From Pyrinomonadaceae bacterium (GTDB lineage: Bacteria > Acidobacteriota > Blastocatellia > Pyrinomonadales > Pyrinomonadaceae), in NCBI GenBank assembly GCA_036388475.1, contig DASVRT010000020.1, positions 18,412-82,411 of the forward strand: a DNA stretch of 64,000 nucleotides, given 5' to 3'. This document shows positions 7,120 through 64,000 of this stretch, in pieces (position 1 is the stretch's first letter; the number at the start of each line of letters is the position of its first letter). Made by a program: the position numbers and the translations under genes. The notes under the pieces were generated by a model, which was given only the letters and a program-made list of their open reading frames with translations, made no database searches and was not told the origin of the DNA.

Positions 7120-7140
7120 AAACGTTATTTACAAAGAGAA

Positions 7141-8799: not shown

Positions 8800-8845
8800 A
8801 AGTGAAAAGTGAAAATTAATTTGATTTTCACTTTTCACTTTTCGT
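8798..8845. terminator. Hairpin terminator built from tandem GTGAAAA heptamers (family A)
   Basis: AAAAGTGAAAAGTGAAAA - loop - TTTCACTTTTCACTTTT, placed between the convergent stops at 8799 and 8855. Confidence 0.6.
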
Positions 8846-8854
8846 TTTTCACTT

Positions 8855-9286
8855 TTATACGCGTGCGTCATCGGTTCTGACATCAGTGCGCGTTAAAAAG
8901 CCTCCAATCAAAAAAACCAGACCGAGCAGAACATGAACGATATGGTCCATCGTGCCCAATTCCAAAGCGCCGGGCAAAACGTGGAGCATATGGGTGTTGG
9001 TGCCGCCGTCGGTCAGATTCGCCGGCAAGCCCGTCGCCGTGCCGGAGTTGAACAAAAATCCCGCCACGCCGAGCAGCAAATAAACCGCACCAAACGCAAG
9101 ACAGAATAATCTGGCGGCGGAAAGCGAGCCTTTCAAGCCCAGATAAAGCGCGACCGCGCCTGAAATCAGATGAATCAGGTTATGCGTCATACTCAGATGC
9201 GTGCCCATAAAATTATCGGAAATAAAGCCGACTAGACCAACCAGGATAAAAACTATGCCCAATATGGTAGCTATTGTTTTTGCCAT
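8855..9286 (-). CDS. DUF4383-like small membrane protein
   Basis: 143 aa with four predicted TM segments; THNLIHLISGAVALYLG pattern. Confidence 0.65.
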   Translation of the reverse strand: MAKTIATILGIVFILVGLVGFISDNFMGTHLSMTHNLIHLISGAVALYLGLKGSLSAARLFCLAFGAVYLLLGVAGFLFNSGTATGLPANLTDGGTNTHMLHVLPGALELGTMDHIVHVLLGLVFLIGGFLTRTDVRTDDARV

Positions 9287-9505
9287 AAACTATCTCCTTA
9301 TGTTGTTTTAAACTGCCAGACCGAAAGCTAATATTCAAAGAACCAATTTATTCGGATTTGCTCGCCGCGTCTGTAATATTAATTACATATCCGATATTTA
9401 TCAGATAAACGTTTCGACTCGATTCGGGCGAAAATCCGAACCGGCGGCAAGCGACTTGTAATCGTTTCAGGGAATTATGCGCCCAAAACTTTAATTTGCC
9501 AAGCA

Positions 9506-9623
9506 AGAGAAGTGAGAAGTGAGAACTGAGAGCTGAGAAGTTTTAAACGACGCGCCCTAAACTCTAATCAGTAAATTGAAAATTCAACACTTCTCAATTC
9601 TCAGTTCTCACTTTTCACTTTCC
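9506..9623. terminator. Long hairpin (arms ~33 bp, loop ~49 nt) built from (G/C)TGAGAA heptamers (family A)
   Basis: AGAGAAGTGAGAAGTGAGAACTGAGAGCTGAGAAG at 9506-9540 pairs with CTTCTCAATTCTCAGTTCTCACTTTTCACTTTCC at 9590-9623. It overlaps the aminopeptidase stop at 9615. Confidence 0.5.
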
Positions 9624-12479: not shown

Positions 12480-12591
12480 AAAATTTATATTTTCACCTGA
12501 AACAAACGCAAAAAAGTCTACAAAAAATTTAGGCGACAACTTTCCGAAAAAGGTTGCCGCCCGTTTATAATTTGAATTTACCGGAAGAGGA

Positions 12592-21650: not shown

Positions 21651-21724
21651 ATTTACAGGGATGACAGGGATAGACAAGGATGAATAGCTATTTATATCCT
21701 TTTCATCCTGTTATCCCTGTAAAT
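21651..21724. terminator. Family B hairpin (ATTTACAGGGAT ... ATCCCTGTAAAT) between hsp20 and clpB
   Basis: Perfect 12-bp outer inverted repeat plus inner CAGGAT/ATCCTG repeats, followed by T-rich sequence. Confidence 0.5.
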
Positions 21725-25180: not shown

Positions 25181-27450
<2,270 letters not shown>

Positions 27451-27522: not shown

Positions 27523-27793
27523 CAAGCCTGATTCTTTAGTTTTTCAACCTGAACGATTAGCTTCCGGACCTAAACGATTAGGTTCGAGACCTAATCCATT
27601 AGCCTTGAAACGTATCCGATTAGGTTCCGGACCTAATCGTTTAGGTCAAAACGTGCTCCGACCAGCTTTCAAGCCTAATCCATTAGGTTCAAGACCTAAT
27701 TCTTTAGGTTCGAGACCTAAAGCTTTAGCCTTTGAACCTAAACGGGTGATGATTTGACCTAATCGCGGCACGATTGAACCTAAAGCGAGCGGC
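27523..27793. repeat. Array of ~13 tandem 21-bp units, each carrying an ACCTAA half-site; several form full palindromes ACCTAA-N4-TTAGGT
   Basis: ACCTAA occurs at 27568, 27588, 27631, (27673), 27694, 27715, 27736, 27757 and 27777, a 20-21 bp periodicity. Perfect units include GACCTAATCGTTTAGGTC and GGACCTAAACGATTAGGTTC. Confidence 0.7.
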
Positions 27794-30320: not shown

Positions 30321-30344
30321 TTTCAAAAGCTGTTTAATATTTTA

Positions 30345-30382
30345 AAAAAGCCGTCGAGCCTGAAATTCGACGGCTTTTTTGT
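30345..30382 (+). terminator. Rho-independent terminator
   Basis: AGCCGTCGA-gcctgaaat-TCGACGGCT followed by TTTTTT. Confidence 0.75.
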
Positions 30383-34423: not shown

Positions 34424-34430
34424 AAAAAAT

Positions 34431-34490
34431 GATGAACGCGGAACGCGGAATTGCAGTTTTTGCGTATCGAATTCCGCGTTCCGCGTTCCG
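34431..34490. terminator. Bidirectional hairpin built from tandem GAACGCG heptamers (family C)
   Basis: GATGAACGCGGAACGCGGAATT - loop - AATTCCGCGTTCCGCGTTCATC, between convergent stops. Confidence 0.6.
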
Positions 34491-34508
34491 CGTTCATCGT
34501 TCTCCGCT

Positions 34509-36215: not shown

Positions 36216-36303
36216 AAAGAACAGCCGCGAAACTACAGGAAAGAACGCGAAAGGAAATAAATAATTTTCGCGTTCTTTCGCGTAGTTTCGCGGCTGTTCT
36301 TGT
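36216..36303. terminator. Long hairpin (arms ~36 bp) related to family C
   Basis: AAAGAACAGCCGCGAAACTACAGGAAAGAACGCGAAA pairs with TTTCGCGTTCTTTCGCGTAGTTTCGCGGCTGTTCTTG. Confidence 0.5.
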
Positions 36304-43550: not shown

Positions 43551-43762
43551 GGCGTTTGGCAACTGCCGAAGCGCTTCCGGCAATTGCCAAACCGATTCCG
43601 GCAACCTCCGGAAAGCGTCCGGCAACTGCCGAATTCGGTCCGGCAGCTTCCAAACGCCGCTCGGCTAATTCCAAATCTCATACGGCAGCTTCCGGAAGCC
43701 TTCCGGCAACTGCCGAACTGCGTCCGGCTTCTTCCGAACTGCGTCCGGCTTTCGCCGAAACT
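43551..43762. repeat. Array of ~10 tandem 21-bp units (consensus TCCGGCAACTGCCGAAnTGCG), each with a short internal palindrome
   Basis: Units start at approximately 43553, 43574, 43595, 43617, 43638, 43660, 43683, 43701, 43722 and 43743. The array is translated as a spurious QLPNxVR repeat in ORF 43584. Confidence 0.7.
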
Positions 43763-43822
43763 TATTTATCCGAAGCCATTTGAAGGCAGGCAGCCGGAAA
43801 CGGGCGAATTATATATTTTTTT

Positions 43823-43857
43823 TGATACTTTTCGTATCGCCTTTACGCTATTACCAG
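43823..43857 (+). promoter_or_regulatory. Candidate promoter, instance e: TGATAC-N17-CGCTATTAC
   Basis: TGATAC at 43823-43828; CGCTATTACCAG at 43846-43857. ATG at 43908. Confidence 0.4.
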
Positions 43858-43907
43858 AGAAGACTATTCTTCAATCTTTTATTTATTCCATAAGTGAGCA
43901 AGCAATT

Positions 43908-44300
43908 ATGTCTATTATTCGAAAAATTACCTGTTATTCATTACTGATTTTATCTATTTTGTCCGCCGTGCCGACTTTGGCGACGACGGAAGACCGCGTG
44001 ACAATCGACCGCGACATCGTTTTCCGGCGCGGCGCGATTTCCGCTTCCCTGCGCGGCAGAATCAATCGCGGCACGACGCATTTATACCGCATTCGCGCCC
44101 GCGCCGGGCAGGAAATGGCAATCGTCCTGAAAACGGGCGAGCAGACTTCCGCGACGCTCTACGCGCCGACCGCGGGCATTGTCGAAGGCGCGGACGGCAT
44201 CCGCCAAACGCTCGTCGAACTGCCCGAAACCGGCGAATACCTGATTCAAATCGGCACCGATGCCGCCGCTAATTACACGCTCGAAGTAACGATTAATTAA
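43908..44300 (+). CDS. Small secreted PPC-like beta-sandwich protein
   Basis: Signal peptide MSIIRKITCYSLLILSILSAVPTLA. Homologous to the C-terminal domain of the 1684 protein. The ORF-track start at 43584 is an extension created by translating the tandem repeat. Confidence 0.6.
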   Translation: MSIIRKITCYSLLILSILSAVPTLATTEDRVTIDRDIVFRRGAISASLRGRINRGTTHLYRIRARAGQEMAIVLKTGEQTSATLYAPTAGIVEGADGIRQTLVELPETGEYLIQIGTDAAANYTLEVTIN

Positions 44301-45363: not shown

Positions 45364-45410
45364 GAAAGCTGAGAACTGAGAATCGTTTTCAATTCTCAGT
45401 TCTCAGCTTT
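45364..45410 (+). terminator. Hairpin terminator (family A, CTGAGAA heptamers)
   Basis: AAAGCTGAGAACTGAGAAT-cgttttc-AATTCTCAGTTCTCAGCTTT. Confidence 0.6.
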
Positions 45411-46181: not shown

Positions 46182-49100
46182 TTATTTTATCGGTTTTTCA
46201 ATTTCCGGAAGCTTCATTCTCCGCAATAAATCGCCGTAGCGCGCGTCGTCGCGGATTGAATCCAGCATCGGCTCGGTCGCGAACCAGAGCAGCCACGGGT
46301 CGAATTCGGCTTGCGATTTTTCAAAATAATCAAAAGCCTCGTCGCGGTCGCCGAGCGCGGCGTGCGCCATTCCCAGAAAATACGGTTTGAGATACGTTGC
46401 GCCGTCGAGCTCCTGCATTTCGCGCAAAACCGCGCGCGCTTCGTCCATTCGACCGACCGCGACGTACGCAAAGCAAAGCTTATATTTCGGCAGCCCCGAT
46501 TGCGGTATCATCGCCGCGAATTTTTCCAGAAAACCGACCGCTTCGTCGATTCGTCCGAGCGCCCATAAATTGATGCCGGTCTGCGCGTAGCCTTGCGGGT
46601 AATTCGGGTCTAAGTCGATAATTTCCCTGCCTTTGGCAAGGGATTCTTTGTGATGACGCGCTTGATACATCGTCCACGCGACCAGCGTTTTCGTGCGCAA
46701 AGAGAGCGGGTCAAGCTGTTCGGCGAGCAGAATTTCCCGAACGCCTTTCTCAAATCTGCCCGTTCCGACCAGCCAAGCCGCATACCATTCGTGAGAATTC
46801 GGATAATTCGGATTCAGCTCCGCCGCGCGATGATAAATCCGCTCGGCTTCATCCCAATTCTGCATGTTCTGCGTGTGCAAGCCGAGCGCGGCGTAAGCCT
46901 CGCCCAACTGGTCGTCGAGTTCGATGGCGCGCCGCGCGGCGGCTTCGGATTTTTCCAGTGCGACGCGCGACGGCATAATGCCGTAAATGTTCGCCCACGT
47001 GTAGAAATCCGCCAGCCCGACATACGCCAGAGCGTAATCCGGGTCGAGATTGATGGCTTTTTGAAACGATTCGAGGGCTTTGATTAAAGCGTCGGGCGTA
47101 AATTGATTCCAGTGAAAACGCCCGCGCAGATACGCTTCGTAGGCTTCAGGGTCGTTCGTTCCGCGTTTTTCGAGCTGGCGGCGCTCTTCGCCCGTCAATT
47201 GCGGAATCAGCGATTGCGCGACTTTTTCCGAAATCGAATCTTCCAGTTCCAAAACGTCCGACGATTTTTCGTCAAAGCTTTCCGCCCAGACCGTCGCGTT
47301 TTCGCTGACGCTTAAAAGCTGGACGGTCACACGGATACGCTCGCCGCTGCGCCGGATGCTGCCGTCGAGAACGTAATCGACCGCCAGTTTTTTTCCCGCT
47401 TCGAACGGATCGACTTCCGTTTGCGCGTATTGCAGAACGGAACTGGTCGGGCGCATTACAAAACGACGCACGTTGGAAAGCCGCGTAATCAACGCGTCCG
47501 TCAAGCCGATGCCGAGATATTCGTCTTCGCCCGCGCCGGTCAGCGCGCCGAATAACCTTAGCGGCAACACGGCGATAGCTTTCGCGCCGCCGGTATCAAG
47601 GCGGGCAATTTTAGATTCTTCCGGCGGCTGAGCCAGAGGATTTCCCGAACGGCGCAGCAAATCGGCATAACGCGCGTCGTCGCGCAAAATGTCGAACTGC
47701 GGGTCGACGCCGAGCCAGTTCAGCCACGCGTCACGCGCCGCAAAAGATTTTTCGAGATTTTCAAAAGCACTGTCCTTATCGCCGAGCGCGCAGTAAATCA
47801 GCGCGAGCATATATTCGGAAACAAACCGCGCCTGAGAAATTTCCCTGAGCCGCGCGAGAATTTTTTCGGCTTCGGCGCGCTCGCCCGCCTCGGCGTAGGC
47901 GGCAGCCAGCTCGTTCAGGTAGAACGGATTTTCGCCCGTCAGCCGGACGGATTTTTCAGCGCTGGCGATGGCTTCCCCGTATTGTCCGGCGCGGCGCAGA
48001 ACCCAACTGAAAGTCTGCAAGCCCCAGGCGTAATTCGGCTCGTTGCCGAGCATTTTCCGGTGCACGGCGATCGACTCGTCAAAACGCCGCGCGTGATACA
48101 AAACCCACGCTTGCAGATGCAGGCTCAGAATCGAATCCGGGTCGAGTTCGAGAACGCGATTTATTTCATCGAGCGCCTCGTCAAAGCGCCCGCTATGCGA
48201 AAGAACCGTGTTCAGCCAGCTATGCGCCGCGACCGAATTCGGATTCAGTTCGATGGCGCGCCGCAGATGTTTCTCCGCCGCGTCCCAATCCCAGTTATAG
48301 CTAATCTCGACAAAGCCCAGAACGGCGTAGCCTTCGGCGAGCGTCGGGTCGAGCGCGACAGCTTTTTCCGCCGCTTCTCTGGCGGGTTTCGCGCCTGCGG
48401 CAAACGGGATAACGCAGTGAATACCGAGAAAAATATAATATTCGGTCAGTGCCGCGTAAGCCAGCGCGTAATTCGGGTCGAGCTCGACGGCGCGCCTGTA
48501 AAACTGAATGGCGCGCGCAAAGCCTTCTTCGCTGTGCAGATTCCAGTTGAAACGCCCGCGCAAGTAGGCTTCATAGGCTTCGGCTTTCTCGGTCGCGCGT
48601 TTGGCGAGCTGCTGCTGTTCTTCGCCGGTCAGATGCGGAACGAGCGATTTGACGACCTGCTCGGAAATCAAATCTTCGAATTCGAGAATGTCGGAAGCTT
48701 TTTCGTCAAAGCTCTGCGCCCATTCGGTCGAATTGCCCCTGACGCTCAAAAGCTGAACCGAGACGCGAATCCGCGCGCCGGAGCGCCGGATATTGCCGTC
48801 CAGAACGTAATCGACGTTCAGCTCGCCGCCCGCCGCAAACGGGTCGGTGTTTTCCTTGAAATTAAGAATCGAGCTGGTCGGGCGGACGATAAAACGACGC
48901 ACGTTGGAAAGACGCGAAATCAACGCGTCAGTCAGCCCGATGCCGAGATATTCGTCGTCGGAATCTCTCGTGCCGAGCATTTTCAGCGGCAGCACGGCGA
49001 TTGATTTTTCTTTGTCTTTAGTTGCGCCCGACGCTTTTTGCCGCCTGACGGAAGGATGATTTATGGCTTTCAATAATCGCTCGCAGCGCGCGTCAGCGGC

Positions 49101-51638
49101 AAGCGCGTCGAACTGCGGGTCAACCGCCAGCCAGCTCAATCTGCCGTCGCGGATTTCGAGCGCCTTATCCAGCAATTCAAAGGCTTTTTCCACGTCGCCC
49201 AGATTGACGTAAATCATCGCCAGAAGATACGGCGAGACATACTGCGTCACCGATAAATTCTCGATTTCGCCGATTAAGCCGCGCGCCTCGTCGTCCTGCC
49301 CAGCCGCCGCATAGGCGGAAGCGAACCAGCATAGCGTGTGCGTGCTTCTGCCGAGCAGCGCGACGGCGTGCTGCGCGACCTTTATCGCTTCCTCGTGTCT
49401 GCCGCTGCGCGACAGCACGCCGATCAAAAATAAATGCGCCAAGCCGTAATGCGGTTCTTCTTCAATCAGCCGGTAAGTTCCCGCAATCGCTTCGTCATAG
49501 CGGCGGGCGTGATACAAAAGCCAGTTTAAAGTCTGCGGGATGATGGGCGTAAACGGGTCGAGTTCGAGCGCTTTATTGACTTGCTCGAAGGCTTCTTCAA
49601 AGCGCCCGCGCATCCCCAGTTGATAGGCGTACCAGACGTGCCCGATGGAGTAATTCGGGTTCAGCTCGATCGCCCGGCGAAAATAATTGTCGGCGGCTTC
49701 CCAATCGAAATCGCCCAACTGCGCGGCAAATCCGAGCGCCGCGTAGCCTTCCGCCAGCTTCGGGTCAAAGGCAATCGCCTGCCGCGCCGCTTTTTTCGTC
49801 GCCGCGGTCGTTTCGGCAAAAGGTCGAACCGCATAAATGCCGAGAAAATTGTAATAATCGGCGATTCCGGCATAGGCGAGCGCGTAATCCGGCGCAAGCT
49901 CAATCGCGCGTTGATAAAAGGCGAGCGATTTGGCAAAGCCTTCGACCGTAAATTGATTCCAGTGATGGCGCCCGCGCAGGTAGGCTTCGTAGGCTTCGGC
50001 GTTGTTGGTCGCGCGTTTTGCCAGTTGATTTTTTTCCTCGCCCGTCAGATGCGAAACGAGCGTTTTGACGACGCGCTCGGAAATCGAGTCTTCAATCTCC
50101 AGCACGTCCGTCATTTTTTCGTCGAAGCTTTCAGCCCAGCGCGTCGCGTTTTCGCCGATGCTCAAAAGCTGGACGCTGACGCGCACGCGGTCGCCGATGC
50201 GCCGGATGCTGCCTTCGACGATAAACTCGACGTCCAGCTCGGCGCCCGCCGCAAACGGGTCGGTGCTGCCGGCGTAGCGCATTATGGAGCTGGTCGGGCG
50301 CACCACCAGCCGCTTGACGCCGCTCAGACGCGAGCCGAGCGCGTCCGCCAGACCGATGCTCAGATATTCGTCGCCCGTCTCGTCGCTCTGCGCCGCGCCG
50401 AGCAGTTTAAACGGCAGAATGGCAATCGAATTTTTGGCTGTCCGTTCGGCTTTTACAACGACCGTTACCGGCAAATCAAACGACTGCGCCCGGACGGGAC
50501 GCTTTTCCAGATAATTGGAAATGTCCTCGCTCAATTCGGCGGCGGATTGATAACGCTCCGCCGCGCTTTTGCGCAGGGTTTTCAAAACGATTTTGTCGAG
50601 ATTGCCCGAAAGCTCGTGCTGCAAAGTCTCAAGCGTCGCGCCGCGCGAGGCGAAAATTACATCCAGCGTCGGTTTTTCGCCCGTGCCCGTATCGCTGCGC
50701 GCAAAATTGTCTTCGCGCGTCAGGATTTCGCTCGGGCGCGTCGGTTCTTCTTCGCGGACGGCGCGCGCGATTTCATACGGCGCGCGGCTTTTGACGCGAT
50801 ACGGGCGATGCCCGGTCAGCAGCTCATACAGCAAAACGCCCAGGCTGTAAATGTCGGAGGCGGGCGTGACAGCCTCGCCGGAAATCTGTTCGGGCGAAGC
50901 GTATTGCGGCGTCATCATTCGCATATGCGTCGCCGTCGGCTCCATCGCCGTCGCGCCGAATTCCGGGTCGAGCAATTTGGCGATGCCGAAATCGAGCAGC
51001 TTCGGCGCGCCGTCCGCCTTGACCAGAATATTAGACGGCTTTAAATCGCGATGGATAATTTTATGGCGGTGCGCTTCTTCAAGCGCCGCGCAGATTTTTT
51101 GAAAAATTTGCAATCTTTCATTGATGCTCAAACGCCGCCGGTCGCAATAAGCGTAAAGCTGCTCGCCCTCGACGTATTCCATCACGAAATACGGCAAGCC
51201 TTTTTCGGTCGAGCCGCCGTCGAGCAGGCGCGTGATGTTCGGATGATTCAGCGTGGCGAGAATCTGCCGCTCATTGCGAAAGCGGCGCACGACCAAATCC
51301 GTGTCCATTCCGCGTTTGATAAGCTTGACGGCGACTTGTCGCGAGAAAGCGCCGTCGACTCTTTCCGCGAGGTAAACCGCGCCCATCCCGCCGCGACCGA
51401 GCTCGCGCACCAGCCGGTAAACGCCGATTTGCCGTCCAATCATCGCGTCCAGCTCGCGGTCTTCGGTCGTTTCGCCGGCAAGCGTTTTTTCCAGCATTTC
51501 GCCGGTCAAAAGTTTTTCCACTTCCTCGCGCATCTCGACATCGGCGCAGGTTTCGGCGAGAAAAACGGTGCGCTCCGCCTCGTTCATCGCGAGCGCGGCT
51601 TGAAAAGCTTTTTCGATTTCTTGCTGTCTGGGCGACAT
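46182..51638 (-). CDS. Giant soluble Ser/Thr protein kinase (1818 aa): N-terminal leader, Hanks kinase domain, then three tandem [AVLPF-like module + TPR] repeats
   Basis: GRGGMGAVYLA...VAVKLI...HRDLKPSNIL...DFGIAKL are the kinase subdomains. The modules begin AKNSIAILPFKLL, KSIAVLPLKML and KAIAVLPLRLF. No TM segment. Confidence 0.9.
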   Translation of the reverse strand: MSPRQQEIEKAFQAALAMNEAERTVFLAETCADVEMREEVEKLLTGEMLEKTLAGETTEDRELDAMIGRQIGVYRLVRELGRGGMGAVYLAERVDGAFSRQVAVKLIKRGMDTDLVVRRFRNERQILATLNHPNITRLLDGGSTEKGLPYFVMEYVEGEQLYAYCDRRRLSINERLQIFQKICAALEEAHRHKIIHRDLKPSNILVKADGAPKLLDFGIAKLLDPEFGATAMEPTATHMRMMTPQYASPEQISGEAVTPASDIYSLGVLLYELLTGHRPYRVKSRAPYEIARAVREEEPTRPSEILTREDNFARSDTGTGEKPTLDVIFASRGATLETLQHELSGNLDKIVLKTLRKSAAERYQSAAELSEDISNYLEKRPVRAQSFDLPVTVVVKAERTAKNSIAILPFKLLGAAQSDETGDEYLSIGLADALGSRLSGVKRLVVRPTSSIMRYAGSTDPFAAGAELDVEFIVEGSIRRIGDRVRVSVQLLSIGENATRWAESFDEKMTDVLEIEDSISERVVKTLVSHLTGEEKNQLAKRATNNAEAYEAYLRGRHHWNQFTVEGFAKSLAFYQRAIELAPDYALAYAGIADYYNFLGIYAVRPFAETTAATKKAARQAIAFDPKLAEGYAALGFAAQLGDFDWEAADNYFRRAIELNPNYSIGHVWYAYQLGMRGRFEEAFEQVNKALELDPFTPIIPQTLNWLLYHARRYDEAIAGTYRLIEEEPHYGLAHLFLIGVLSRSGRHEEAIKVAQHAVALLGRSTHTLCWFASAYAAAGQDDEARGLIGEIENLSVTQYVSPYLLAMIYVNLGDVEKAFELLDKALEIRDGRLSWLAVDPQFDALAADARCERLLKAINHPSVRRQKASGATKDKEKSIAVLPLKMLGTRDSDDEYLGIGLTDALISRLSNVRRFIVRPTSSILNFKENTDPFAAGGELNVDYVLDGNIRRSGARIRVSVQLLSVRGNSTEWAQSFDEKASDILEFEDLISEQVVKSLVPHLTGEEQQQLAKRATEKAEAYEAYLRGRFNWNLHSEEGFARAIQFYRRAVELDPNYALAYAALTEYYIFLGIHCVIPFAAGAKPAREAAEKAVALDPTLAEGYAVLGFVEISYNWDWDAAEKHLRRAIELNPNSVAAHSWLNTVLSHSGRFDEALDEINRVLELDPDSILSLHLQAWVLYHARRFDESIAVHRKMLGNEPNYAWGLQTFSWVLRRAGQYGEAIASAEKSVRLTGENPFYLNELAAAYAEAGERAEAEKILARLREISQARFVSEYMLALIYCALGDKDSAFENLEKSFAARDAWLNWLGVDPQFDILRDDARYADLLRRSGNPLAQPPEESKIARLDTGGAKAIAVLPLRLFGALTGAGEDEYLGIGLTDALITRLSNVRRFVMRPTSSVLQYAQTEVDPFEAGKKLAVDYVLDGSIRRSGERIRVTVQLLSVSENATVWAESFDEKSSDVLELEDSISEKVAQSLIPQLTGEERRQLEKRGTNDPEAYEAYLRGRFHWNQFTPDALIKALESFQKAINLDPDYALAYVGLADFYTWANIYGIMPSRVALEKSEAAARRAIELDDQLGEAYAALGLHTQNMQNWDEAERIYHRAAELNPNYPNSHEWYAAWLVGTGRFEKGVREILLAEQLDPLSLRTKTLVAWTMYQARHHKESLAKGREIIDLDPNYPQGYAQTGINLWALGRIDEAVGFLEKFAAMIPQSGLPKYKLCFAYVAVGRMDEARAVLREMQELDGATYLKPYFLGMAHAALGDRDEAFDYFEKSQAEFDPWLLWFATEPMLDSIRDDARYGDLLRRMKLPEIEKPIK

Positions 51639-56715: not shown

Positions 56716-56830
56716 AGTTTCTCACACGTGCCGGAAACAATTCGGAAGACGGGCGAATCCAGAGTCGCCCGTTTTTCCGACAAAGCGCCGTCCGTCCGGT
56801 TTTATCACGCTCGAACCGGCGACGGCGACA

Positions 56831-56892
56831 GACGAAGTAAAGCATTTATTGCAGAAGAACGGTTATCTCCGCAAAATATGCTTTACTTCGTC
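56831..56892. terminator. Hairpin with a 15-bp stem
   Basis: GACGAAGTAAAGCAT - 32-nt loop - ATGCTTTACTTCGTC. Confidence 0.5.
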
Positions 56893-56904
56893 CTACGCGA
56901 TTAA

Positions 56905-57105
56905 AAGAAATTCACCAGACGGACACAAAGAACACTAAAGAGAAATACTCCGCAGACAAACCGGAAACGACACGGATAAGAAATTGATTTGAAATCTGAA
57001 ATCTGAAATTTCAAAATCGCAATTCTCGCGTGCTTATCTGCGCCCGTTCGTGTTTATCTGCGGGCTATTCTTTAGTGTTCTTTGTGTCCGTCTGGTGAAA
57101 TTTAA
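56905..57105. repeat. About 200-bp palindromic MITE-like element, copy E1: 29-bp perfect terminal inverted repeats around a TTTGAAATCTGAAAT core
   Basis: CACCAGACGGACACAAAGAACACTAAAGA at 56912-56940 matches its reverse complement at 57072-57100. The core GATAAGAAATTGATTTGAAATCTGAAATCTGAAATTTC is shared with copy E2. It abuts the kinase stop at 57102. Confidence 0.6.
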
Positions 57106-60100
57106 TCGGAAGGCAAAACGCGCCGCTGGAATTCGCTGAACTGGGCGTTTTCACGAACGTTGTCGAAGAAAGGACTGACGGCTATAAAATTTATCTCGTT
57201 GCGTTTTTCCGCTTCGGTGACGCGCAGCCATTTTAAGGTTTCGCCGGCGTTGCCGAGCAGCGCGTAAATGGTCGAGATATGATACGCCGACGTTTTTTGC
57301 AGTTTATCGGCGTCCGGCAGTGAAAAAGCTTCGGCAATCGCTTTTTCGGCTTCGGCTTTTTTATTTCCGGCGGCGTAAGTTTCCGCCAGGCTCAGGCGCA
57401 GATGAAATTCGTTGCTGCCCGCGTGATAGATTCTTTCCTGACCGAGCACGTTCATCGCCTCGTCAAACTCGCCCTGAAGCTCAAGCGCGCGGCGCAAGCC
57501 CATATAAGCATTGATAAATCCCGCATCGCGGCGCAAAATTTTGCGGTATTGCTCGGCGGCAAGCCCGTATTGACGCGCGTACAGAAGAATATTGCCGTGC
57601 GCGGCGACGGCAAACAGCGACTGCGGGTCGAGGCGTTCGGCGATTTCGATTTGCCGCAGAGCCTCGTCGGATTTTCCGCCGCCGCTTAGAACCAGCGCCA
57701 GCCAGTGACGCGCCTGCGCGTAGCTCGGATTCAATTCGACGGCGCGGCGCAGATGTTTTTCCGCCTCGCTGAAACGGCGCTCGCCGTAAAATTCGACGAG
57801 TCCGAGCGTCGCGTTGGCGTCGGCTGACTGGTCGTCGAGACTCAAAGCTTTTTCGGCATTTTCGCGCGCCTTTCGATAACCGTCCGGCGGCGCGGGCGGA
57901 TACAGATTCATCAGCGCGTAAGCGTCCGCCAGACCGGCGTAAGCCTGCGCGAATTTCGGGTCGAGCGCGATTGCCTGTTCGAAATTGACCAGCGCGATTT
58001 TGAAATTTTCGGTTTTGCGCTTCGCCAGATTGTAGCGCCCGGCGAGATAAAATTGATAAGCTTCCTCGTTGAGCGTGGTTTTCCGGTTCAGCGTTTCGCG
58101 CTCGTTCAGGCTCAGTTCGAGACTCAGATTCTGCACCACGCGCTCGGCAATCAGATACTGCAATTGCGAAAGCTCGTTTTCGCGCAGGGAAAATTTTTCC
58201 GACCAGACGGCTTCGCCTTTTTCCGTGTTTTGCAAAGCGGCGATGACCTGCAAATTGTCGTTGACTCTTTCCAGCTGCGTGAACAAAACGTAATTAGCCG
58301 CCAGCTCGCGCCCGATGTTTATCGCTTCTTCGGCGGACGCGGCTTTTTTGCTGCTGGCGGTCACGGGACGCACGGATAACTGCTTGATTTGACCGAGCCT
58401 TGAAGTGATGGCTTCGGCGATTCCGAGACTTAAATGCTCGTCCGTCTGATTCAGATTCACCAGATTAAACGGCAGAATCGCAATCGAATTGACGGCTTTC
58501 GGGCGGCGTTCCGCCGGAACTTCGCTGTCGTTCAAATCGGTTTGATAAATTTTATAATTCGTTTCGCGGTTGCTCTGAAAAACGAGTTTTGTATCCGAAA
58601 GCCAGACCGCTTCCAAATCGTTCGCGGGATTTATCGTCACGCGCTGGCGATTTTCGCCGTTCGTCTCCATCACCCACAAATCGTAGCGCGGGCTGAGACT
58701 TTCGAAATTGGTCGAATAAACGAAGCGCTGCCCGTCGGGCGAAAAAACGGGCAGCGCTTCGTCGGCTTTGTCGGTGTTGCTGACGTTGGTCTGTTCCGAG
58801 CCGTCGGCGTTCATCATCCAGATGTCGAAAACGCTGCCGGTCATCGCCTTTGTATAAGCGATTTTTTTGCCGTCGGGCGACCAGTTCGGGTCGGATTCAA
58901 AAGCCGTGTTGTCGGTCAGTTGTTTCGCGCTGCTGCCGTCGGCGTTCATCACCCAGATGTTCGCCTCGCGGCGGTCGTTCAGGCTGCGATTACTGCCGAA
59001 CGCAATTTTTGAACCGTCGGGCGAAAAAATCGGGCGCATATCGAGACCGGGAAAATTCGACAGATTCCGCTGGTCCGAGCCGTCGGCGTCCATTATCCAG
59101 ATGTCGCTTTCGACGCCGATTTGCGAATAGCTTTCGTAAACGATGCGCTTGCCGTCGGGCGACCAGTTGGCGCTGGTTTCCTCGGTTTTGTTATTGGTGA
59201 CGCGGCGCAGATTCGTGCCGTCCAGATTCATCACGTAAATCTCGCTGTTGCCCTCGCGGTTGCTGACGAATAAAACCTCGGATTTGTCGGGCGAAAGCTT
59301 CGGATTTTTTTCGACCGCCGCCGCAGACGTCAGCGGAATAACTTTGCCGGGAATAAAAGTCTGCACTTCGCCGCCGCTGCCGTTGACGGTCGGCGCGGAA
59401 AATGTCAGCGTGCCGTATTTATAATACGAAAATCCCAGACCGGCGCCGACAATCAAAAGCAGAACGGCGAGCGCGGCGACAGTAAACGGTTTCCAGCCAA
59501 ACTCGCGGCGCGGCTGTTTGCCGGCAATTTCCCGATTAAGCAATTTGCTTTTCGGCGCTTCGCTTCTGAAAATCTCGCCGAATCTTTTCGTCACCGCGGT
59601 TTTGTGTATCGCGCCGTCGGTGTCGGTCGCCTCCACGCTTTTTTCAAAAGTGAAATGCGAGACGATCGGATTGACGTTTTTCAGCTTCGCCAGCGAATCG
59701 ACAATTTCCTGAAACTCTTTCTCGCCGCGAAGCGAGTCGAAGCGAGCGTCGGTTTCGAGCCAGAACATTCGATAATCTTTATCTTTTTCGGCTTGTTTAA
59801 GGCTGCGGAGCGCGTCTTTTTTATTGCCTAAAGCCGCCTGCACCAATGCCGCGTAAAACTGCGAAACGTAACGGTGAACGCGCGCTTCGAGCATCTCGCG
59901 CAAAATGCGCTCGGCTTCTTCGCGCTTTCCGTTGCGCGCCAGCGCATAGCCGTAAGCGGCGAGCGTCGAAGGCGTGCGCTCGGAAATCTCGACGGCGCGG
60001 CGGCAAAACTCGACGCCTTCACCGGCGCGCTCAAGCTCCGGCAGAATCCAGCCGTAGCTTTGCAAAACGTGGCTGTTCGACGGCTCAAGCTGAATGGCGC

Positions 60101-62339
60101 GATTGTTTTGCGCCAAGGATTCTTCAAAACGGCGTGCTTTAAAGAGAATCTGCGACGCGATAATCGGAATCGAAGCGGAAATCGGATTCAGACGCTGCGC
60201 GATATTGATTTCGTTCAAAGCTTCGTCGTAACGACCGAGAGAACTGTAAAAAAGCGCGAGCCATTCGTGCGTTTGAAAATAATTCGGATTCAGTTCCAGC
60301 GCGTGCCGGAAAAGCTTTTCGCCTTCGGCAAAATCCCAGTTGAAAGCCCATTTGGAAAAGGCTAAAGACGCGTGCGCTTCAGCGAGATGCGGGTCGAGCT
60401 CGACGGCTTTTTCCGCCGCCTGCCGCGCCGCGCCGAAACATTCCTTCGGCGGCAGAACGCCGACGATGCCGAGCCACGTGTGATAATCGGCGACGCCCGA
60501 GTAAGCGCGCGCGTAATTCGGGTCGAGCGCGATTGCCTCGTAAAAATAAACGATTGATTTGGCGAGCGATTCTTCCGTGAATTTGTGCCAGCAGTAACGC
60601 CCGCGCAGATATTTTTCGTGCGCGGCTTCGTCTTTGGTGCCGACAAAGGCAATCTGTTCGAGTTCTTCGGTCGAAATCTGCGGAATCAAAGCGGCGGCGA
60701 CTTTCGTGGATAGCGAATCCTGCAAAGCCAGCACGTCGGCGACGTTTTCGTCAAACTGTTCCGCCCAGATGGAAGCGCCGTCCTTGATGCTGATTAACTG
60801 CACGGTGACGCGGATTTTATCGCGGACTTTCAGAATTCGCCCGTCCAGAACGTAAGCCACGCCGAGACGTTTGCCGATGGTCAGCGAATCTTCTTCGGCG
60901 GTGGCGTATTGCAGAACCGTGCCCGTAGGGCGCACGGAAAAACGGCGCATATTGCCGAGCCGCGTAATCAGCGCGTCCGCCAGACCGATGCCTAAAAATT
61001 CGTCGCCCGTGTCGTGCGTTCCGTTATTGGCGATGATGTTGAGCAGTTTGAACGGCAAAACGGCGAGCGTTTTCTGCTTCGTTCCGCCCGTCGTGTCGGT
61101 CGTTTCGGGTTGATGGGTCTGAAAGGAAGGTTTCGCCTTTATCGGCTGACCTTTCAGAAAGCGCTTGATGTCTTCGGAAAGCTGCTCGACCGACGAATAA
61201 CGGCGATGCGGCTCTTTGTGCAGAGACTGCAAAAGAAGCGCGTCCAGCCCGCTTTCCAGCTCGATTTTTAAAGTCTCCAAAGTCGTTTTGCGGCAGCGGA
61301 AAATGGTTTCCATCGTCACCGGCTCAAGCGAAAATTTGTTCGAGTTAACGAATTGGTCGCTGCTGCCGACGATTACGCTCGGCGTCGCGGGCGCTTTCTC
61401 GCAGATGACTTTGGCGATTTCCAGCGGCGAGCGGTTTTCGAGCAAATACGGTCGATGCCCGGTCACGACTTCGTAAAGCAAAACGCCGAGACTGTACTGG
61501 TCGGTCGCCGACGTCACGAAATTTCCGCTGACCTGTTCGGGCGAAGCGTATTCCGGCGTCATCATCCGCATCGCGGTCGCCGTCGGCTCCTGCGTTTCGT
61601 GAATAAGGTCGGGATTTAAAAGCTTGGCGATGCCGAAATCGAGCAGCTTCGGCACGCCGTCCTCGGTGACGAGAATGTTCGACGGCTTGATGTCGCGGTG
61701 AATAATCAGGTTTTGATGCGCGTAATAAACCGCCGCGCAAACCTGTTGAAACAATTGCAGACGCTCGCGCACGGTCAGGCGATTGCCGTCGCAATACTGC
61801 GTAATCGGCAAGCCTTCGATGTATTCCATCACGAAATACGGCAAGCCGTCGTCGGTGGTGCCGCCGTCAAGCAGGCGCGCGATGTTCGGATGATTTAAGG
61901 CGGCGAGAATCTGGCGTTCGTTGCGGAAGCGGCGCAAAACCTGGTCGCTGTCCATTCCGCGCTTGATTAATTTAATGGCGACGTTTTGCTGAAATTCTCT
62001 ATCGTCGCGGACGGCGAGATAAACCGCGCCCATCCCGCCGCGCCCGATTTCTTTGGTGATGCGGTAAACGCCGATTTTCTTGCCGATAGTCGAATCGCCG
62101 CCGTCGCCGTTCGCGCCGTTTTTTCCTTCGATGACGTTTTCCAGATACGGAACATACGGCGAGGATTCGATAAAATCTTCGGCTTCCGAGTCGGAATCGA
62201 GCAGAATATCGGCTTGCTCGCGCAGCTCGCGGTCGCCCCGGCAAGCTTCGTCGAGGAAAGTTTCGCGTTTTTCGGGCGGAAGAACAACCGCTTGATTAAA
62301 AATTTCTTCAAGCCTCTTCCATTTATCGGGTGACATCAA
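57102..62339 (-). CDS. Giant membrane-spanning Ser/Thr protein kinase (1745 aa): leader, kinase, [AVLPF + TPR], single TM, PD40/TolB-like beta-propeller, [AVLPF + TPR]
   Basis: Kinase motifs as in the 46182 paralog. TM FTVAALAVLLLIVGAGLGF at about aa 950-972. PD40 repeats (SPDG(K/S)...IW.M.ADGS) at about aa 1000-1290. Second module KAVNSIAILPFNLVNLNQTD. Confidence 0.9.
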   Translation of the reverse strand: MMSPDKWKRLEEIFNQAVVLPPEKRETFLDEACRGDRELREQADILLDSDSEAEDFIESSPYVPYLENVIEGKNGANGDGGDSTIGKKIGVYRITKEIGRGGMGAVYLAVRDDREFQQNVAIKLIKRGMDSDQVLRRFRNERQILAALNHPNIARLLDGGTTDDGLPYFVMEYIEGLPITQYCDGNRLTVRERLQLFQQVCAAVYYAHQNLIIHRDIKPSNILVTEDGVPKLLDFGIAKLLNPDLIHETQEPTATAMRMMTPEYASPEQVSGNFVTSATDQYSLGVLLYEVVTGHRPYLLENRSPLEIAKVICEKAPATPSVIVGSSDQFVNSNKFSLEPVTMETIFRCRKTTLETLKIELESGLDALLLQSLHKEPHRRYSSVEQLSEDIKRFLKGQPIKAKPSFQTHQPETTDTTGGTKQKTLAVLPFKLLNIIANNGTHDTGDEFLGIGLADALITRLGNMRRFSVRPTGTVLQYATAEEDSLTIGKRLGVAYVLDGRILKVRDKIRVTVQLISIKDGASIWAEQFDENVADVLALQDSLSTKVAAALIPQISTEELEQIAFVGTKDEAAHEKYLRGRYCWHKFTEESLAKSIVYFYEAIALDPNYARAYSGVADYHTWLGIVGVLPPKECFGAARQAAEKAVELDPHLAEAHASLAFSKWAFNWDFAEGEKLFRHALELNPNYFQTHEWLALFYSSLGRYDEALNEINIAQRLNPISASIPIIASQILFKARRFEESLAQNNRAIQLEPSNSHVLQSYGWILPELERAGEGVEFCRRAVEISERTPSTLAAYGYALARNGKREEAERILREMLEARVHRYVSQFYAALVQAALGNKKDALRSLKQAEKDKDYRMFWLETDARFDSLRGEKEFQEIVDSLAKLKNVNPIVSHFTFEKSVEATDTDGAIHKTAVTKRFGEIFRSEAPKSKLLNREIAGKQPRREFGWKPFTVAALAVLLLIVGAGLGFSYYKYGTLTFSAPTVNGSGGEVQTFIPGKVIPLTSAAAVEKNPKLSPDKSEVLFVSNREGNSEIYVMNLDGTNLRRVTNNKTEETSANWSPDGKRIVYESYSQIGVESDIWIMDADGSDQRNLSNFPGLDMRPIFSPDGSKIAFGSNRSLNDRREANIWVMNADGSSAKQLTDNTAFESDPNWSPDGKKIAYTKAMTGSVFDIWMMNADGSEQTNVSNTDKADEALPVFSPDGQRFVYSTNFESLSPRYDLWVMETNGENRQRVTINPANDLEAVWLSDTKLVFQSNRETNYKIYQTDLNDSEVPAERRPKAVNSIAILPFNLVNLNQTDEHLSLGIAEAITSRLGQIKQLSVRPVTASSKKAASAEEAINIGRELAANYVLFTQLERVNDNLQVIAALQNTEKGEAVWSEKFSLRENELSQLQYLIAERVVQNLSLELSLNERETLNRKTTLNEEAYQFYLAGRYNLAKRKTENFKIALVNFEQAIALDPKFAQAYAGLADAYALMNLYPPAPPDGYRKARENAEKALSLDDQSADANATLGLVEFYGERRFSEAEKHLRRAVELNPSYAQARHWLALVLSGGGKSDEALRQIEIAERLDPQSLFAVAAHGNILLYARQYGLAAEQYRKILRRDAGFINAYMGLRRALELQGEFDEAMNVLGQERIYHAGSNEFHLRLSLAETYAAGNKKAEAEKAIAEAFSLPDADKLQKTSAYHISTIYALLGNAGETLKWLRVTEAEKRNEINFIAVSPFFDNVRENAQFSEFQRRVLPSD

Positions 62340-62582
62340 ATTACAGTTATGCGGTTAAAAACGCTATGCCTCTTATCTCGGGTTAAACGGCACTGACGAA
62401 TCGACAGTGAAGCGGAATTTTAACACACTTTCCAGCAAGTAATCTAAGAAGCAGATTGAACGCGGCGCGTTGTCCGAAACTAAAGCAATCTTTTGTAAAT
62501 AAAAACACTTCCGACGAAAAAATTCAGCCGCGAACAATCACCGGAAAATAGACGTAAAACCGGCGGAAACTGCCAAAGAATC

Positions 62583-62790
62583 AGCCGCGAGAGCGCGGGA
62601 AAAGCACGAAAAGGAAATAGGAAAATCGTCCGCACGCAGAGACAGATAAACACAGATAGATAAGCTTTACTTACAATTTCAAATTTCAAATCTGAGATTT
62701 CAAATCAATTTCTTATCTGTGTCTGCCTGTGTTCATCTGTGAACTATTTCTCTTTCGTGCTTTTTCGCTTCCTTTCGCGGCTAATCTATT
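62583..62790. repeat. MITE-like palindromic element, copy E2; homologous to E1 and in inverted orientation
   Basis: The reverse complement of 62640-62720 (...AAAGAGAAATAG...CAGACACAGATAAGAAATTGATTTGAAATCT...) aligns with the E1 core. The element's own arms are AGCCGCGAGAGCGCGGGAAAAGCACGAAA / TTTCGTGCTTTTTCGCTTCCTTTCGCGGCT. Confidence 0.6.
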
Positions 62791-62878: not shown

Positions 62879-63454
62879 GTGTCCGCCGAAAAAACACAAG
62901 AGATAACGCAGCTGCTGATAAAGCTTTCCAACGGTCAACGCGCCGCCGTGGATGACCTTTTGCCGTTGATTTACGACGAATTGCGCTCTCTCGCTTCGAA
63001 TTACCTGCGCCGCGAGCGCGTCTCGCACACTTTGCAGCCGACGGCGCTCGTTCACGAAGCTTATTTGAAACTCGTTGACGTCAATCAGGTGACGTGGCAG
63101 AATCGCGCGCATTTTTTCGGCGTCGCGGCAAACCTGATGCGGCGGATTCTGATTGATTACGCGCGCCAGCACAAAGCCGACAAGCGCGGCGGCGAATTTC
63201 AAAAACTCGCGCTCGACGAAAACATCGACAAAGCCGCCGAGCAAAGCACGGAGCTGGTCGCGCTGGACGACGCGCTCGAAACTCTCTCGAAAATCGACCC
63301 CGTCAAAAGCCGCATCGTGGAGCTTCGCTATTTCGGCGGCTTGACGGTCGAAGAAACCGCCGAAGTGATGGGCATCTCCACCATTACCGTCAAGCGCCAC
63401 TGGCGAATGGCGAAAGCCTGGCTCTACGGACAACTCAGCAATGACCCCAATTAG
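62879..63454 (+). CDS. ECF-type sigma-70 family sigma factor of the Ser/Thr-kinase-associated group (TIGR02999/ECF43-like)
   Basis: GTG start with a GGAGAGG Shine-Dalgarno. LLPLIYDELRSLASNYLRRERVSHTLQPTALVHEAYLKL (region 2) and IVELRYFGGLTVEETAEVMGISTITVKRHW (region 4). A kinase gene starts 14 nt before the sigma stop codon. Confidence 0.8.
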   Translation: MSAEKTQEITQLLIKLSNGQRAAVDDLLPLIYDELRSLASNYLRRERVSHTLQPTALVHEAYLKLVDVNQVTWQNRAHFFGVAANLMRRILIDYARQHKADKRGGEFQKLALDENIDKAAEQSTELVALDDALETLSKIDPVKSRIVELRYFGGLTVEETAEVMGISTITVKRHWRMAKAWLYGQLSNDPN

Positions 63455-64000
63455 CGCGACGCGCTGGAAAAAAATCGAAGACATTTTTCAGACGGCGCTC
63501 GATAAATCTACGCCCGAACTGCGCGCGGCATATCTCGCCGAAGCCTGCGCCGGCGACACGAGCCTGCGCGACGAAGTCGAAAAACTCCTCGTCCAGTTTG
63601 ACGAAGCCGAAGATTACGCCGACCTCGACGAAACCGAACCCGACAATCGCTCGCTTTTATCGACTTTGCTGAGCACCGATAAAGACGACGACGACCCGGT
63701 TATCGGCAATCGTCTGGGCGCGTATCGCGTCGAAGCGGAAATCGGGCGCGGCGGGATGGGAACGGTTTATCTGGCAGTCCGCGACGATAGAGAATTCAAC
63801 AAAAAAGTCGCCGTCAAACTGGTCAAGCGCGGAATGGACACCGATTATATCCTGCGCCGCTTTCGCAAGGAGAGACAGATTTTAGCGTCGCTCGAACACC
63901 CGTTTATCGCCGCGCTGCTCGACGGCGGAACGTCGCCCGACGGTCGCCCGTATTTCGTGATGGAGCTGGTCGAGGGCAAAAATTTTTACGAATACTGCGA
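63441..64000 (+). CDS. Ser/Thr protein kinase; N-terminal part only (runs off the right edge of the window); cognate partner of the ECF sigma factor
   Basis: MTPISATRWKKIEDIFQTALDKSTPELRAAYLAEACAGDTSLRDEVEKLL, then GRGGMGTVYLAVRDDREFNKKVAVKLVKRGMD. Overlaps the sigma-factor stop codon. Confidence 0.85.
   Translation, partial: MTPISATRWKKIEDIFQTALDKSTPELRAAYLAEACAGDTSLRDEVEKLLVQFDEAEDYADLDETEPDNRSLLSTLLSTDKDDDDPVIGNRLGAYRVEAEIGRGGMGTVYLAVRDDREFNKKVAVKLVKRGMDTDYILRRFRKERQILASLEHPFIAALLDGGTSPDGRPYFVMELVEGKNFYEYC

Follow-up and report, generated by a model that had tools for sequence, protein, structure and literature searches.

The kinase locus and its two palindromic elements

We analyzed a 64,000-nt stretch of a Pyrinomonadaceae contig (DASVRT010000020.1; hereafter the window, whose coordinates are used throughout) in which a giant Ser/Thr kinase gene stands between two palindromic elements, E1 and E2. 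An ECF sigma factor gene and a second kinase gene (kinase2) lie upstream of the giant kinase and are divergent from it. The remaining genes beside the segment encode a DUF6683 protein and small unknown proteins, and annotation and Pfam analysis of the neighborhood revealed no transposase or recombinase gene in or beside the kinase segment. The features of the locus are listed below, from left to right; numbers of the form L003 or L085 denote other loci with which the window was compared.

56908 to 56943, no strand: E1 outer left arm, a site-specific outer stem with words ...TTCACCAGACGG ACACAAAG AACACTAAAGAG and 97% pairing with 57069-57102
56944 to 57068, no strand: E1 inner module, CAGATAA-word arms and an asymmetric center, homologous to the E2 inner module and to L003:838-955
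56969 to 57015, plus strand: E1 non-repetitive conserved center (GACACGGATAAGAAATTGATTTGAAATCTGAAAT...), with AATCAATTTCTTA on the minus strand at 56977-56989
57069 to 57102, no strand: E1 outer right arm, overlapping the final base of the kinase stop codon
57102 to 62336, minus strand: giant Ser/Thr kinase gene, 1744 aa from the ATG; Pfam domains Pkinase, TPR, PD40 beta-propeller and TPR
62440 to 62476, minus strand: kinase upstream block CGGACAAC-N17-CTTCTTAGATTA, invariant columns in six orthologous intergenic regions, ~105 nt from the nearest E2 edge
62579 to 62619, no strand: E2 outer left arm, GCCGCGA.. and CACGAAA words, pairing with 62746-62786 in the fold
62620 to 62745, no strand: E2 inner module, CAGATAA-word arms and center, inverted relative to E1; not in the orthologous hairpins of L085, L086, L088 and L092
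62677 to 62723, minus strand: E2 conserved center, with AATCAATTTCTTA on the plus strand at 62703-62715
62746 to 62786, no strand: E2 outer right arm, from the fold; the conserved flank TTTCAATAACAATTTGGAAA lies directly to its right in the window, L085 and L086
62802 to 62831, plus strand: sigma-70-like promoter of the sigma factor gene from a promoter scan, TTGGAA-18-TATACT, 16 nt to the right of E2 and 88-94% conserved in orthologs
62879 to 63454, plus strand: ECF sigma factor gene (PF07638), followed by the second kinase gene (ORF map of open reading frames, Pfam)

E1 is an imperfect palindrome of 195 nt (56908-57102) whose terminal 34-nt arms (56908-56941 and 57069-57102) are 97% complementary. 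As kinase-strand RNA it forms a single hairpin, for which the minimum free energy (MFE) is -101 kcal/mol (z = -14.3 against dinucleotide shuffles), and its right arm covers the last base of the kinase stop codon (TAA, the complement of 57102-57104). E2 is a single long hairpin (~62579-62786; MFE -78.8, z = -6.9) located in the 539 nt that separate the kinase start (62336, minus strand) from the sigma factor gene (62879, plus strand), where it sits between the promoter-like site of the sigma gene and the invariant kinase upstream block.

An earlier note on this DNA had described the kinase gene as exactly bracketed by two copies of a ~200-bp palindromic element in opposite orientation. Two related imperfect palindromes of this size are indeed present, as judged from their arms, their folds and a shared module of ~140-145 nt that is ~71% identical in inverted orientation. 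The bracket is exact at the 3′ end, where E1 overlaps the stop codon, and inexact on the 5′ side, because E2 is at least 240 nt from the kinase start codon at 62336. In inverted orientation, 47 nt match at 89% (56969-57015 and 62677-62723), and the longest identical run, in the non-repetitive center, is 23 nt. Since each copy is a palindrome, orientation is defined by the asymmetric center alone; by this measure the two copies are opposed, although the direct match is almost as good (70% over 100 nt). A 28-nt core occurs in the window only at E1 and E2 (chance expectation 0). By the shortness of their identical runs, E1 and E2 are old or diverged copies.

Within the family formed by E1, E2 and the L003 copy, conservation is highest in AATCAATTTCTTA, which matches the E. 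coli IHF consensus WATCAANNNNTTR perfectly and is found at 56977-56989 (minus strand), 62703-62715 (plus strand) and L003:~915-927. The window contains eight IHF-consensus matches compared to 2.4 expected from shuffles, in AT-rich DNA and with a consensus taken from E. coli, and we treat the IHF site in the E1/E2 center as a candidate and only a lead. Two other motif readings were rejected: an outward promoter in E1 (TTGAAA-17-CAAAAT) is not kept in E2 or L003, and, on inspection, the TTATCYGYG words do not fit the DnaA box TTATNCACA.

The window sequence recurs at 99.9% identity in an ENA metagenome contig and also in a Logan contig. The ENA contig, a second assembly from a different sample, is collinear with the window, with 13 differences over 18.5 kb and none inside E1 or E2.

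Orthologous loci keep the gene order without the module

We compared seven orthologous kinase loci (L084, L085, L086, L087, L088, L092 and L093). L093 stops at the kinase 5′ end, and the sigma side is kept in the other six. The kinase coding sequence (CDS) is 87-90% identical to that of the window at the nucleotide level in L084, L085, L086, L092 and L093 and 73-75% identical in L087 and L088. From sigma factor and kinase2 to giant kinase, order and orientation are the same in 6/6 loci retaining the sigma side; L093 is collinear on the downstream side, in the same orientation relative to the conserved downstream element, and the neighborhood downstream of the kinase is largely kept across the loci. 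Nucleotide identities to the orthologs are as follows.

Sigma factor CDS: 84-94%
Sigma promoter block: 88-94%
Kinase upstream block: 79-84%
The ~150-nt element downstream of E1: 77-89%

No match to E1 was detectable in any of the seven loci, and E2 matches orthologs in its outermost ~40 nt only (the 5′ hairpin of L092 at 79% and a solo arm remnant in L085 at 85%). Comparison of relatives for inversion or presence of the segment, which had been proposed as a check, thus gave a preserved order, no inversion of the kinase segment among the orthologous loci and a module missing in 7/7 orthologs. Because these loci keep the gene order without the module, the kinase was in place before the E1/E2 module arrived. 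The giant kinase, inherited vertically, is in no way unusual within its very large family of Pyrinomonadaceae kinases; proteins named as Pyrinomonadaceae or Acidobacteriota protein kinases are the closest to it (90-92% aa identity), and paralogue-level relatives number in the thousands.

At the two positions themselves, relatives mostly carry other hairpins. A hairpin is found at the kinase 3′ site in five of the seven orthologs and at the 5′ site in four of six, with a remnant in L084, and all interiors differ.

After the kinase stop, L084: ACAGGATA-word hairpin
After the kinase stop, L085: GCCGCGAAA/CACGAAA-word hairpin
After the kinase stop, L086: CAGATA-word hairpin lacking the E1 center
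After the kinase stop, L087: CAGATA-word hairpin lacking the E1 center
After the kinase stop, L092: perfect palindrome with 62-nt arms of AAGGTAAAAGG words
After the kinase stop, L088: no long hairpin
After the kinase stop, L093: no long hairpin
Divergent spacer, L085: interior of CACAGAG and ACAGGATA words; a solo 3′ arm homologous to the E2 outer arm is kept
Divergent spacer, L086: interior of GTGGTAA words
Divergent spacer, L088: interior of GATTCCAGATT words
Divergent spacer, L092: GCCGCGAAA.. outer arm as in E2, with a different interior
Divergent spacer, L084: 1.6-kb insertion with an amidohydrolase gene, 8236-9693

The window has its outermost stem TTCACC.../...GGTGAA in common with L084, L085 and L087, the changes in it being concerted between the two arms, and the divergent-spacer hairpin always starts directly after a conserved CAAATTGTTATTGAAA on the sigma side. 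As the outer stem is common to relatives and the inner module is lineage-specific, E1 and E2 are nested.

In L084, a 92% aa orthologue, nothing but word remnants of the 3′-arm type (TTTTACC TTTTACC) is left on one side of the 1.6-kb insertion. The site of the divergent-spacer hairpin thus looks like a hot spot at which larger segments insert. Elsewhere in these loci, a set of orthologous hairpins (L085:16072-16166, L086:16119-16195 and L084:16613-16703) reads AAGGTTCAAGG in L085 and L086 and AGTCCAAAGTC in L084 in every repeat, which indicates concerted evolution of words within an array and across both arms.

The inner module recurs in a heme operon

A 22-mer core of the module was scanned as an exact string against 185,579 GTDB species representatives, viral contigs and JGI metagenomes. 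It had no match in the GTDB representatives or the viral contigs and one in the JGI metagenomes. This match is L003, the heme-biosynthesis locus of another metagenome, in which the copy (L003:838-955) fills the hemN-hemH spacer of the operon. By blastn, the L003 copy is 79% identical to the E1 module over 115 nt and 74% identical to E2, compared to 70-72% between E1 and E2. The L003 copy is therefore nearer to E1 and to E2 than they are to each other, so that E1 and E2 are not sister copies in the manner of transposon ends.

A search with the terminus pattern AAGAGAA...TTCTCTT recovered little, the pattern being too strict, and was replaced by an nhmmer profile built on the three copies (E1, E2 and L003). 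Weaker members were found with this profile in L024, where the member lies in a divergent spacer, in L066, where it closely follows a stop codon, and in L085. The three copies share a hairpin of 50 pairs, six of which show compensatory changes, and its most conserved part is the non-repetitive center. No direct repeats flank E1, E2, the inner modules or the L003 copy; the flanks are inverted complements. Of the description as a repeat resembling a miniature inverted-repeat transposable element, or MITE, the repeated palindromic element holds, given the third copy and the weaker relatives; the mobile-element part is not supported, as neither a target-site duplication (TSD) nor a transposase was found.

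Long word-armed hairpins cap many genes

From our own reading of the computed folds and the ORF map, a long hairpin lies 0-22 nt from the stop codon in 13 of the 27 spacers of the window that contain a gene 3′ end (at 3211, 7134, 8798, 9507, 16099, 16848, 21651, 24347, 27542, 34428, 36217, 45365 and E1). Among the seven divergent spacers only one, that of E2, holds a long hairpin. A scan for ungapped inverted repeats found 12, ten of them in the non-coding 11.5% of the window, and none in 20 simulated sequences. The hairpin arms consist of tandem purine-rich words of 7-10 nt (CAGATAA, ACAGGAT, CACGAAA, GTGAGAA) with the complement on the other arm, and these words turn up again at unlinked loci, in other genomes too, across Blastocatellia. 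In our own tally over sigma-anchored loci, grouped by the name of the locus, those named Pyrinomonadaceae or Blastocatellia hold ~63 hairpins in 503 kb (~0.12 per kb), and loci of other classes hold two in 204 kb (~0.01 per kb). Further members in the window, none with an assigned strand, are as follows.

7134 to 7291: nested hairpin of this class, located 14 nt past a stop codon; E1/E2 boundary words AAAGAGAAA-T..CCGCAGAT / GTTTATCTGCG, with CCTGTTAATTATCCGCGTTTATCTGC also in L003:2485-2510
9507 to 9620: word-armed hairpin (GTGAGAA/CTGAGAG), overlapping the stop codon of the gene at 9615-12539 (minus strand)
21651 to 21724: word-armed hairpin (ACAGGGAT), occupying the entire 84-nt spacer between same-strand genes
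34428 to 34501: word-armed hairpin (GAACGCG), between convergent genes
36217 to 36301: hairpin with GCCGCGAAA/CGCGAAAG words, like the E2 outer layer without the inner module; 36-nt arms, 94% complementary; blast match to the E2 ends
45365 to 45410: word-armed hairpin (CTGAGAA), 3 nt after a stop codon

The resemblance to the hairpin at 36217-36301 extends to the outer left arm of E2. Canonical GC-stem/T-tract terminators also occur in the window (e.g., at 30343-30381 and 56750-56776), and the long hairpins are therefore additional to them and not the sole terminators. No canonical terminator was recovered from the E1 or E2 stems in the terminator scan; the TTTCTTTT that follows E1 on the kinase strand makes only a partial U-tract. 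An Rfam search of the whole window returned nothing at the gathering threshold and, at E<=1, only plant miRNA precursors and rliD, far below threshold. We found no description of such hairpin repeats in the literature on Pyrinomonadaceae, Blastocatellia and Acidobacteria, of which our coverage was incomplete, making this weak evidence.

Two further repeats in the window differ in type. A hairpin cluster of CCTAA/TTAGG units (GACCTAAACGATTAGGTTC...) at 27542-27741, in the 590-nt spacer after the gene at 25828-27450, is distinct from the purine-word class. An inverted repeat at 43551-43658 (51-nt arms, 75% complementary; GGCAACTGCCGAAGCGCTTCCGGCAATTGCC...) runs from the end of a spacer into the ORF at 43584-44300 and is GC-rich, unlike the word-armed class.

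Hairpins are replaced at the heme locus

Four loci with HemN 87-100% identical to that of L003 have four unrelated hairpins in the hemN-hemH spacer.

hemN-hemH spacer, L003: hairpin of the E1/E2 type
hemN-hemH spacer, L089: hairpin of GTGAGAG words
hemN-hemH spacer, L090: hairpin of ACAGGGATA words
hemN-hemH spacer, L091: hairpin of CACGAAA words

The neighboring hemE-hemN spacer is 13 nt long in L090 and L091 and contains a ~150-nt hairpin in L003 and L089. These two hairpins have an outer GCCACAGAGG stem in common and differ inside, and that of L003 is a mosaic in which one arm has been swapped for CAGATAA words. Because the filled alleles differ also in the hemE C-terminus, the hemE-hemN event is not a clean insertion. 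E1 and E2 were inspected for TSDs, as were the copies in L003 and the hemE-hemN spacers, filled against empty, with nothing convincing in any of them. A conserved outer stem with a variable interior was seen at three sites, namely the two kinase sites, 3′ and 5′, and the spacer between hemE and hemN.

Interpretation and alternatives

Based on these comparisons, we interpret E1 and E2 as independently placed, diverged copies of a low-copy subfamily within a fast-changing, lineage-wide class of word-armed palindromic repeats at gene boundaries that resemble REP, BIME, ERIC and Correia elements, and not as a pair that makes the kinase gene a mobile, invertible or co-regulated unit. We assign this interpretation a probability of roughly 0.7. 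Several results weigh against it. The copies number two in 64 kb, none in the GTDB representatives (by exact 22-mer) and one in the JGI metagenomes, and because these counts are so low the "dispersed family" rests on few members. A TSD, a transposase and a clean empty site are all absent for the E1/E2 subfamily. E1 and E2 are 5.6 kb apart, so that local gene conversion could account for their likeness instead of transposition. The sense-strand fold is the more stable one in 9/18 hairpins; this lack of bias speaks against purely RNA-level selection, and whatever constrains or generates the hairpins appears to work on the palindrome as DNA and not on one RNA. Strong termination is also unlikely, and leaky termination the most to be expected, because hairpins fill spacers inside the hem operon.

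The earlier note had offered three explanations for the arrangement. That two copies of a non-autonomous element delivered or moved the kinase gene between them, as in a composite transposon, is suggested by the sight of a single gene flanked by two related inverted palindromic elements. We consider it very improbable, as gene order is kept in seven orthologous loci that lack the module, the copies are only ~71% identical with each nearer to a third copy elsewhere, and they are nested in older site-specific stems with no TSD found and no transposase in or beside the segment. An invertible cassette, in which recombination between E1 and E2 would flip or delete the kinase gene, could draw on the inverted homology of 47 nt at 89%, but the longest identical run does not exceed 23 nt, no recombinase gene is nearby, the second assembly is collinear and the orthologous loci are all in one orientation; we give this explanation next to no chance. 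The proposal that E1 and E2 are regulatory RNA structures of this particular kinase, a 3′ terminator and a 5′ leader, fares somewhat better and is still improbable. E1 does begin at the stop codon, with TTTCTTTT following on the kinase strand, and most orthologs keep hairpins at both positions, and the part of the proposal that places E1 in the 3′ untranslated region (UTR) is very probably correct. As a pair the two do not fit, since E2 is ~105 nt upstream of the invariant CGGACAAC-N17-CTTCTTAG and 16 nt upstream of the sigma -35, hence upstream of both promoter blocks; furthermore, interiors are wholly unconserved between orthologs, the same class of hairpin follows many unrelated genes and there is no Rfam match.

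A different kind of explanation is that hairpins diversify in place, through slippage of word arrays and arm-templated correction, with the likeness of E1 and E2 due to local gene conversion. The arms are indeed tandem word arrays, orthologous arrays carry the same substitution in every repeat (AAGGTTCAAGG in L085/L086 versus AGTCCAAAGTC in L084), and mosaic arms exist, as at L003:2360-2520, where a CACAGAG-type left arm stands opposite a CAGATAA-type right arm. The spacing of E1 and E2, only 5.6 kb, and the absence of the module elsewhere in the window agree with such an origin. The shared center, however, is non-repetitive, identical at 23/23 positions and also present in an unrelated hem operon at an identity above that of E1 to E2, and the wholly different word types at one hem spacer, in genomes with HemN proteins 87-95% identical to that of L003, are too different for gradual change. 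We therefore judge purely local diversification unlikely as the source of the pair, and prefer independent placement of E1 and E2.

Comparison with known repeat families

Several families of bacterial intergenic repeats resemble E1 and E2 in some respects. MITE, ERIC and REP-type repeats are often co-transcribed at gene 3′ ends and change mRNA stability (PMC3184786). The ERIC/IRU elements of Enterobacteriaceae (~127-bp imperfect palindromes) are alike in size range, in being palindromic as a whole, in having variants by internal insertion and in their intergenic location, often directly behind genes and within operons; once transcribed, they fold as a long RNA hairpin, which alters the stability of upstream mRNA (PMC3184786). 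E1 and E2 differ from them in lacking sequence similarity, TA flanks or target duplications, in their word-array arms, in an apparently low copy number and in the wholesale replacement of interiors between close relatives in their class. The Correia elements of Neisseria (CREE/NEMIS) are 100-155-bp palindromic MITE-like repeats at gene boundaries that are co-transcribed, some with a central IHF site (PMC3184786), and both Correia elements and BIMEs carry IHF sites (PMC3184786). E1 and E2 have neither the 26-bp consensus of terminal inverted repeats nor the TA duplication of Correia elements; the host phylum is different, and their IHF site is a consensus match in AT-rich DNA. Given host phylum and composition, homology of E1 and E2 to ERIC or Correia elements is implausible, and we regard these as analogues in function only.

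REP, BIME and REPIN elements are likewise extragenic palindromes with a bias to gene 3′ ends and convergent spacers and a mosaic, modular build, and BIMEs bind IHF and gyrase (PMC3184786; PMC3116915; PMC3733652). A REP is a GC-rich palindrome of 20-40 bp with a GTAG or CGTC tag (PMC3733652), whereas E1 and E2 are ~200 nt long and AT-rich and lack such a tag. One of the orthologous loci does contain a classic RAYT/REP layout: an IS200/IS605-type Y1 transposase gene (L088:4235-4960; 167 aa, PF01797) adjoins the orthologous kinase2, with one pair of short GC-rich hairpins (GTCCCGCAGGGAC and CCCAACGAT..ATCGTTGGG) repeated on its two sides. We rejected this RAYT, the only Y1 transposase encountered, as a mobilizer of E1 and E2, as its short GC-rich REPs are unlike them.

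The pneumococcal BOX, RUP and SPRITE repeats share a modular build (boxA-boxB(n)-boxC), hairpins and terminator-like intergenic repeats (PMC3184786); they have no homology to E1 or E2, their modules are fixed sequences and not word arrays, and nesting is not reported. Heptamer arrays (cyanobacterial STRR; TAACTGA in Beggiatoaceae, PMC4679880) are also intergenic and made of 7-nt words from a limited vocabulary. Those arrays are direct, with 169 direct heptamer sets versus one inverted set in the Beggiatoa survey (PMC4679880), whereas arrays of the E1/E2 class are complementary pairs that form long hairpins. The RHE hairpins of sponge and fungal mitochondria (PMC2800124) invade intergenic regions, with families that differ between close lineages while gene order is unchanged; they are organellar and have short stems (10-18 bp) that are conserved as loops vary, in contrast to the E1/E2 class, which keeps outer stems and replaces interiors. 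Rho-independent terminators resemble the class in being symmetric, potentially bidirectional hairpins immediately after a stop codon, but stems of the E1/E2 class are 5-10 times longer, AT-rich and without a consistent U-tract, and some lie inside operons.

Viewed as MITEs, E1 and E2 have terminal inverted repeats trivially, as any palindrome would, and their orthologous sites hold other hairpins instead of being empty; in the wider class, the hemE-hemN spacer is empty in two loci and filled in two. By sequence, E1 and E2 fit none of the known families: there is no common consensus, tag, TA or other duplication, or cognate transposase.

A possible mechanism of turnover

Each element is nested, with an older outer stem tied to its site (after the kinase stop for E1, between divergent promoters for E2) that surrounds a module of ~125-145 nt. 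The inner module has been exchanged in this lineage, with relatives holding other modules at the same apex, and turnover seems to run from the center outwards. The modules may be copied and pasted into hairpin apexes, or breaks at the apex may be repaired from other word-armed hairpins through words such as CCGCAGA/CCACAGA. The combination of conserved outer stem and variable interior fits apex-directed insertion and equally apex breakage followed by copying. In E. coli, SbcCD cuts long palindromes at the hairpin tip.

E1 is very probably within the kinase 3′ UTR and, by analogy with ERIC, REP and Correia elements, could form the transcribed 3′ end of the kinase mRNA, in which its ~90-bp stem might serve as a 3′ barrier, a processing site or a leaky terminator. 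Such a stem may make RNA polymerase pause or, in part, terminate; it may also halt 3′ exonucleases or be the substrate of an RNase specific for double strands. E2, by contrast, lies outside both likely transcripts because it is upstream of the sigma -35 (by 16 nt) and of the kinase block (by ~105 nt); it is probably untranscribed, and any action it has would be that of a DNA palindrome between promoters. The kinase block CGGACAAC-N17-CTTCTTAGATTA stays invariant even in a 64% aa kinase orthologue and, from its sequence, looks like a candidate ECF-type promoter, which the divergent ECF sigma factor encoded next to it may recognize.

The kinase bracket itself matters little compared to the background phenomenon of hairpins. 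In this major soil lineage, about half of gene 3′ ends are capped by long hypervariable nested palindromes whose positions are conserved and whose sequences are not, which bears on transcript ending and stabilization in Acidobacteriota and on the ways in which a bacterial chromosome tolerates and renews long palindromes. We tentatively raise a broader idea, which we think has a modest chance of being right: that Pyrinomonadaceae and Blastocatellia carry previously undescribed modular cassettes of nested hairpins, built from a small vocabulary of 7-10-nt words, fixed in position at gene boundaries and replaced wholesale from the apex outwards between genomes whose neighboring coding DNA is 87-95% identical. 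If so, this would imply mobility that targets hairpin apexes, or break-and-copy repair in which, for example, extruded palindromes are cleaved and repair is templated via shared words, and E1 and E2 would be two products of that process. To our knowledge, no enzyme is known for either activity.

Assembly ends and other features of the locus

Some short-read contigs end in, at or near these long palindromes: contig L002 stops within the left arm of E1 (equivalent to window position 56940), L092 stops (at 7653) on the final base of its perfect palindrome with 62-nt arms, and L089 stops 75 nt beyond a hairpin. Long hairpins probably fragment Pyrinomonadaceae metagenome-assembled genomes; in practice they break short-read assemblies, and they would serve well as strain-typing markers.

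Just downstream of E1, at 56740-56904 (minus strand), lies a conserved unit of ~150 nt that is also found at L084:15398-15570, L085:15362-15525, L086:15335-15500 and L093:5975-6155. It consists of two hairpins with invariant loops TTTGCGGAGATAACCG and TCGAGCGTGATAAAAC followed by a bidirectional GC-stem terminator, and is 77-89% identical across orthologs, with compensatory changes at six pairs. Because it follows a different gene in L093 (ydjM-like), the unit behaves as independent. It has no Rfam match, and its sequence makes it a candidate small RNA or 3′-UTR element.

The longest inverted repeat near E1 and E2 (61812-62105 versus 63684-63977; 294 nt, 72%) corresponds to the kinase domains of the giant and second kinases. 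A second giant kinase paralogue of 1818 aa is encoded at 46182-51638, 5.5 kb from the giant kinase.

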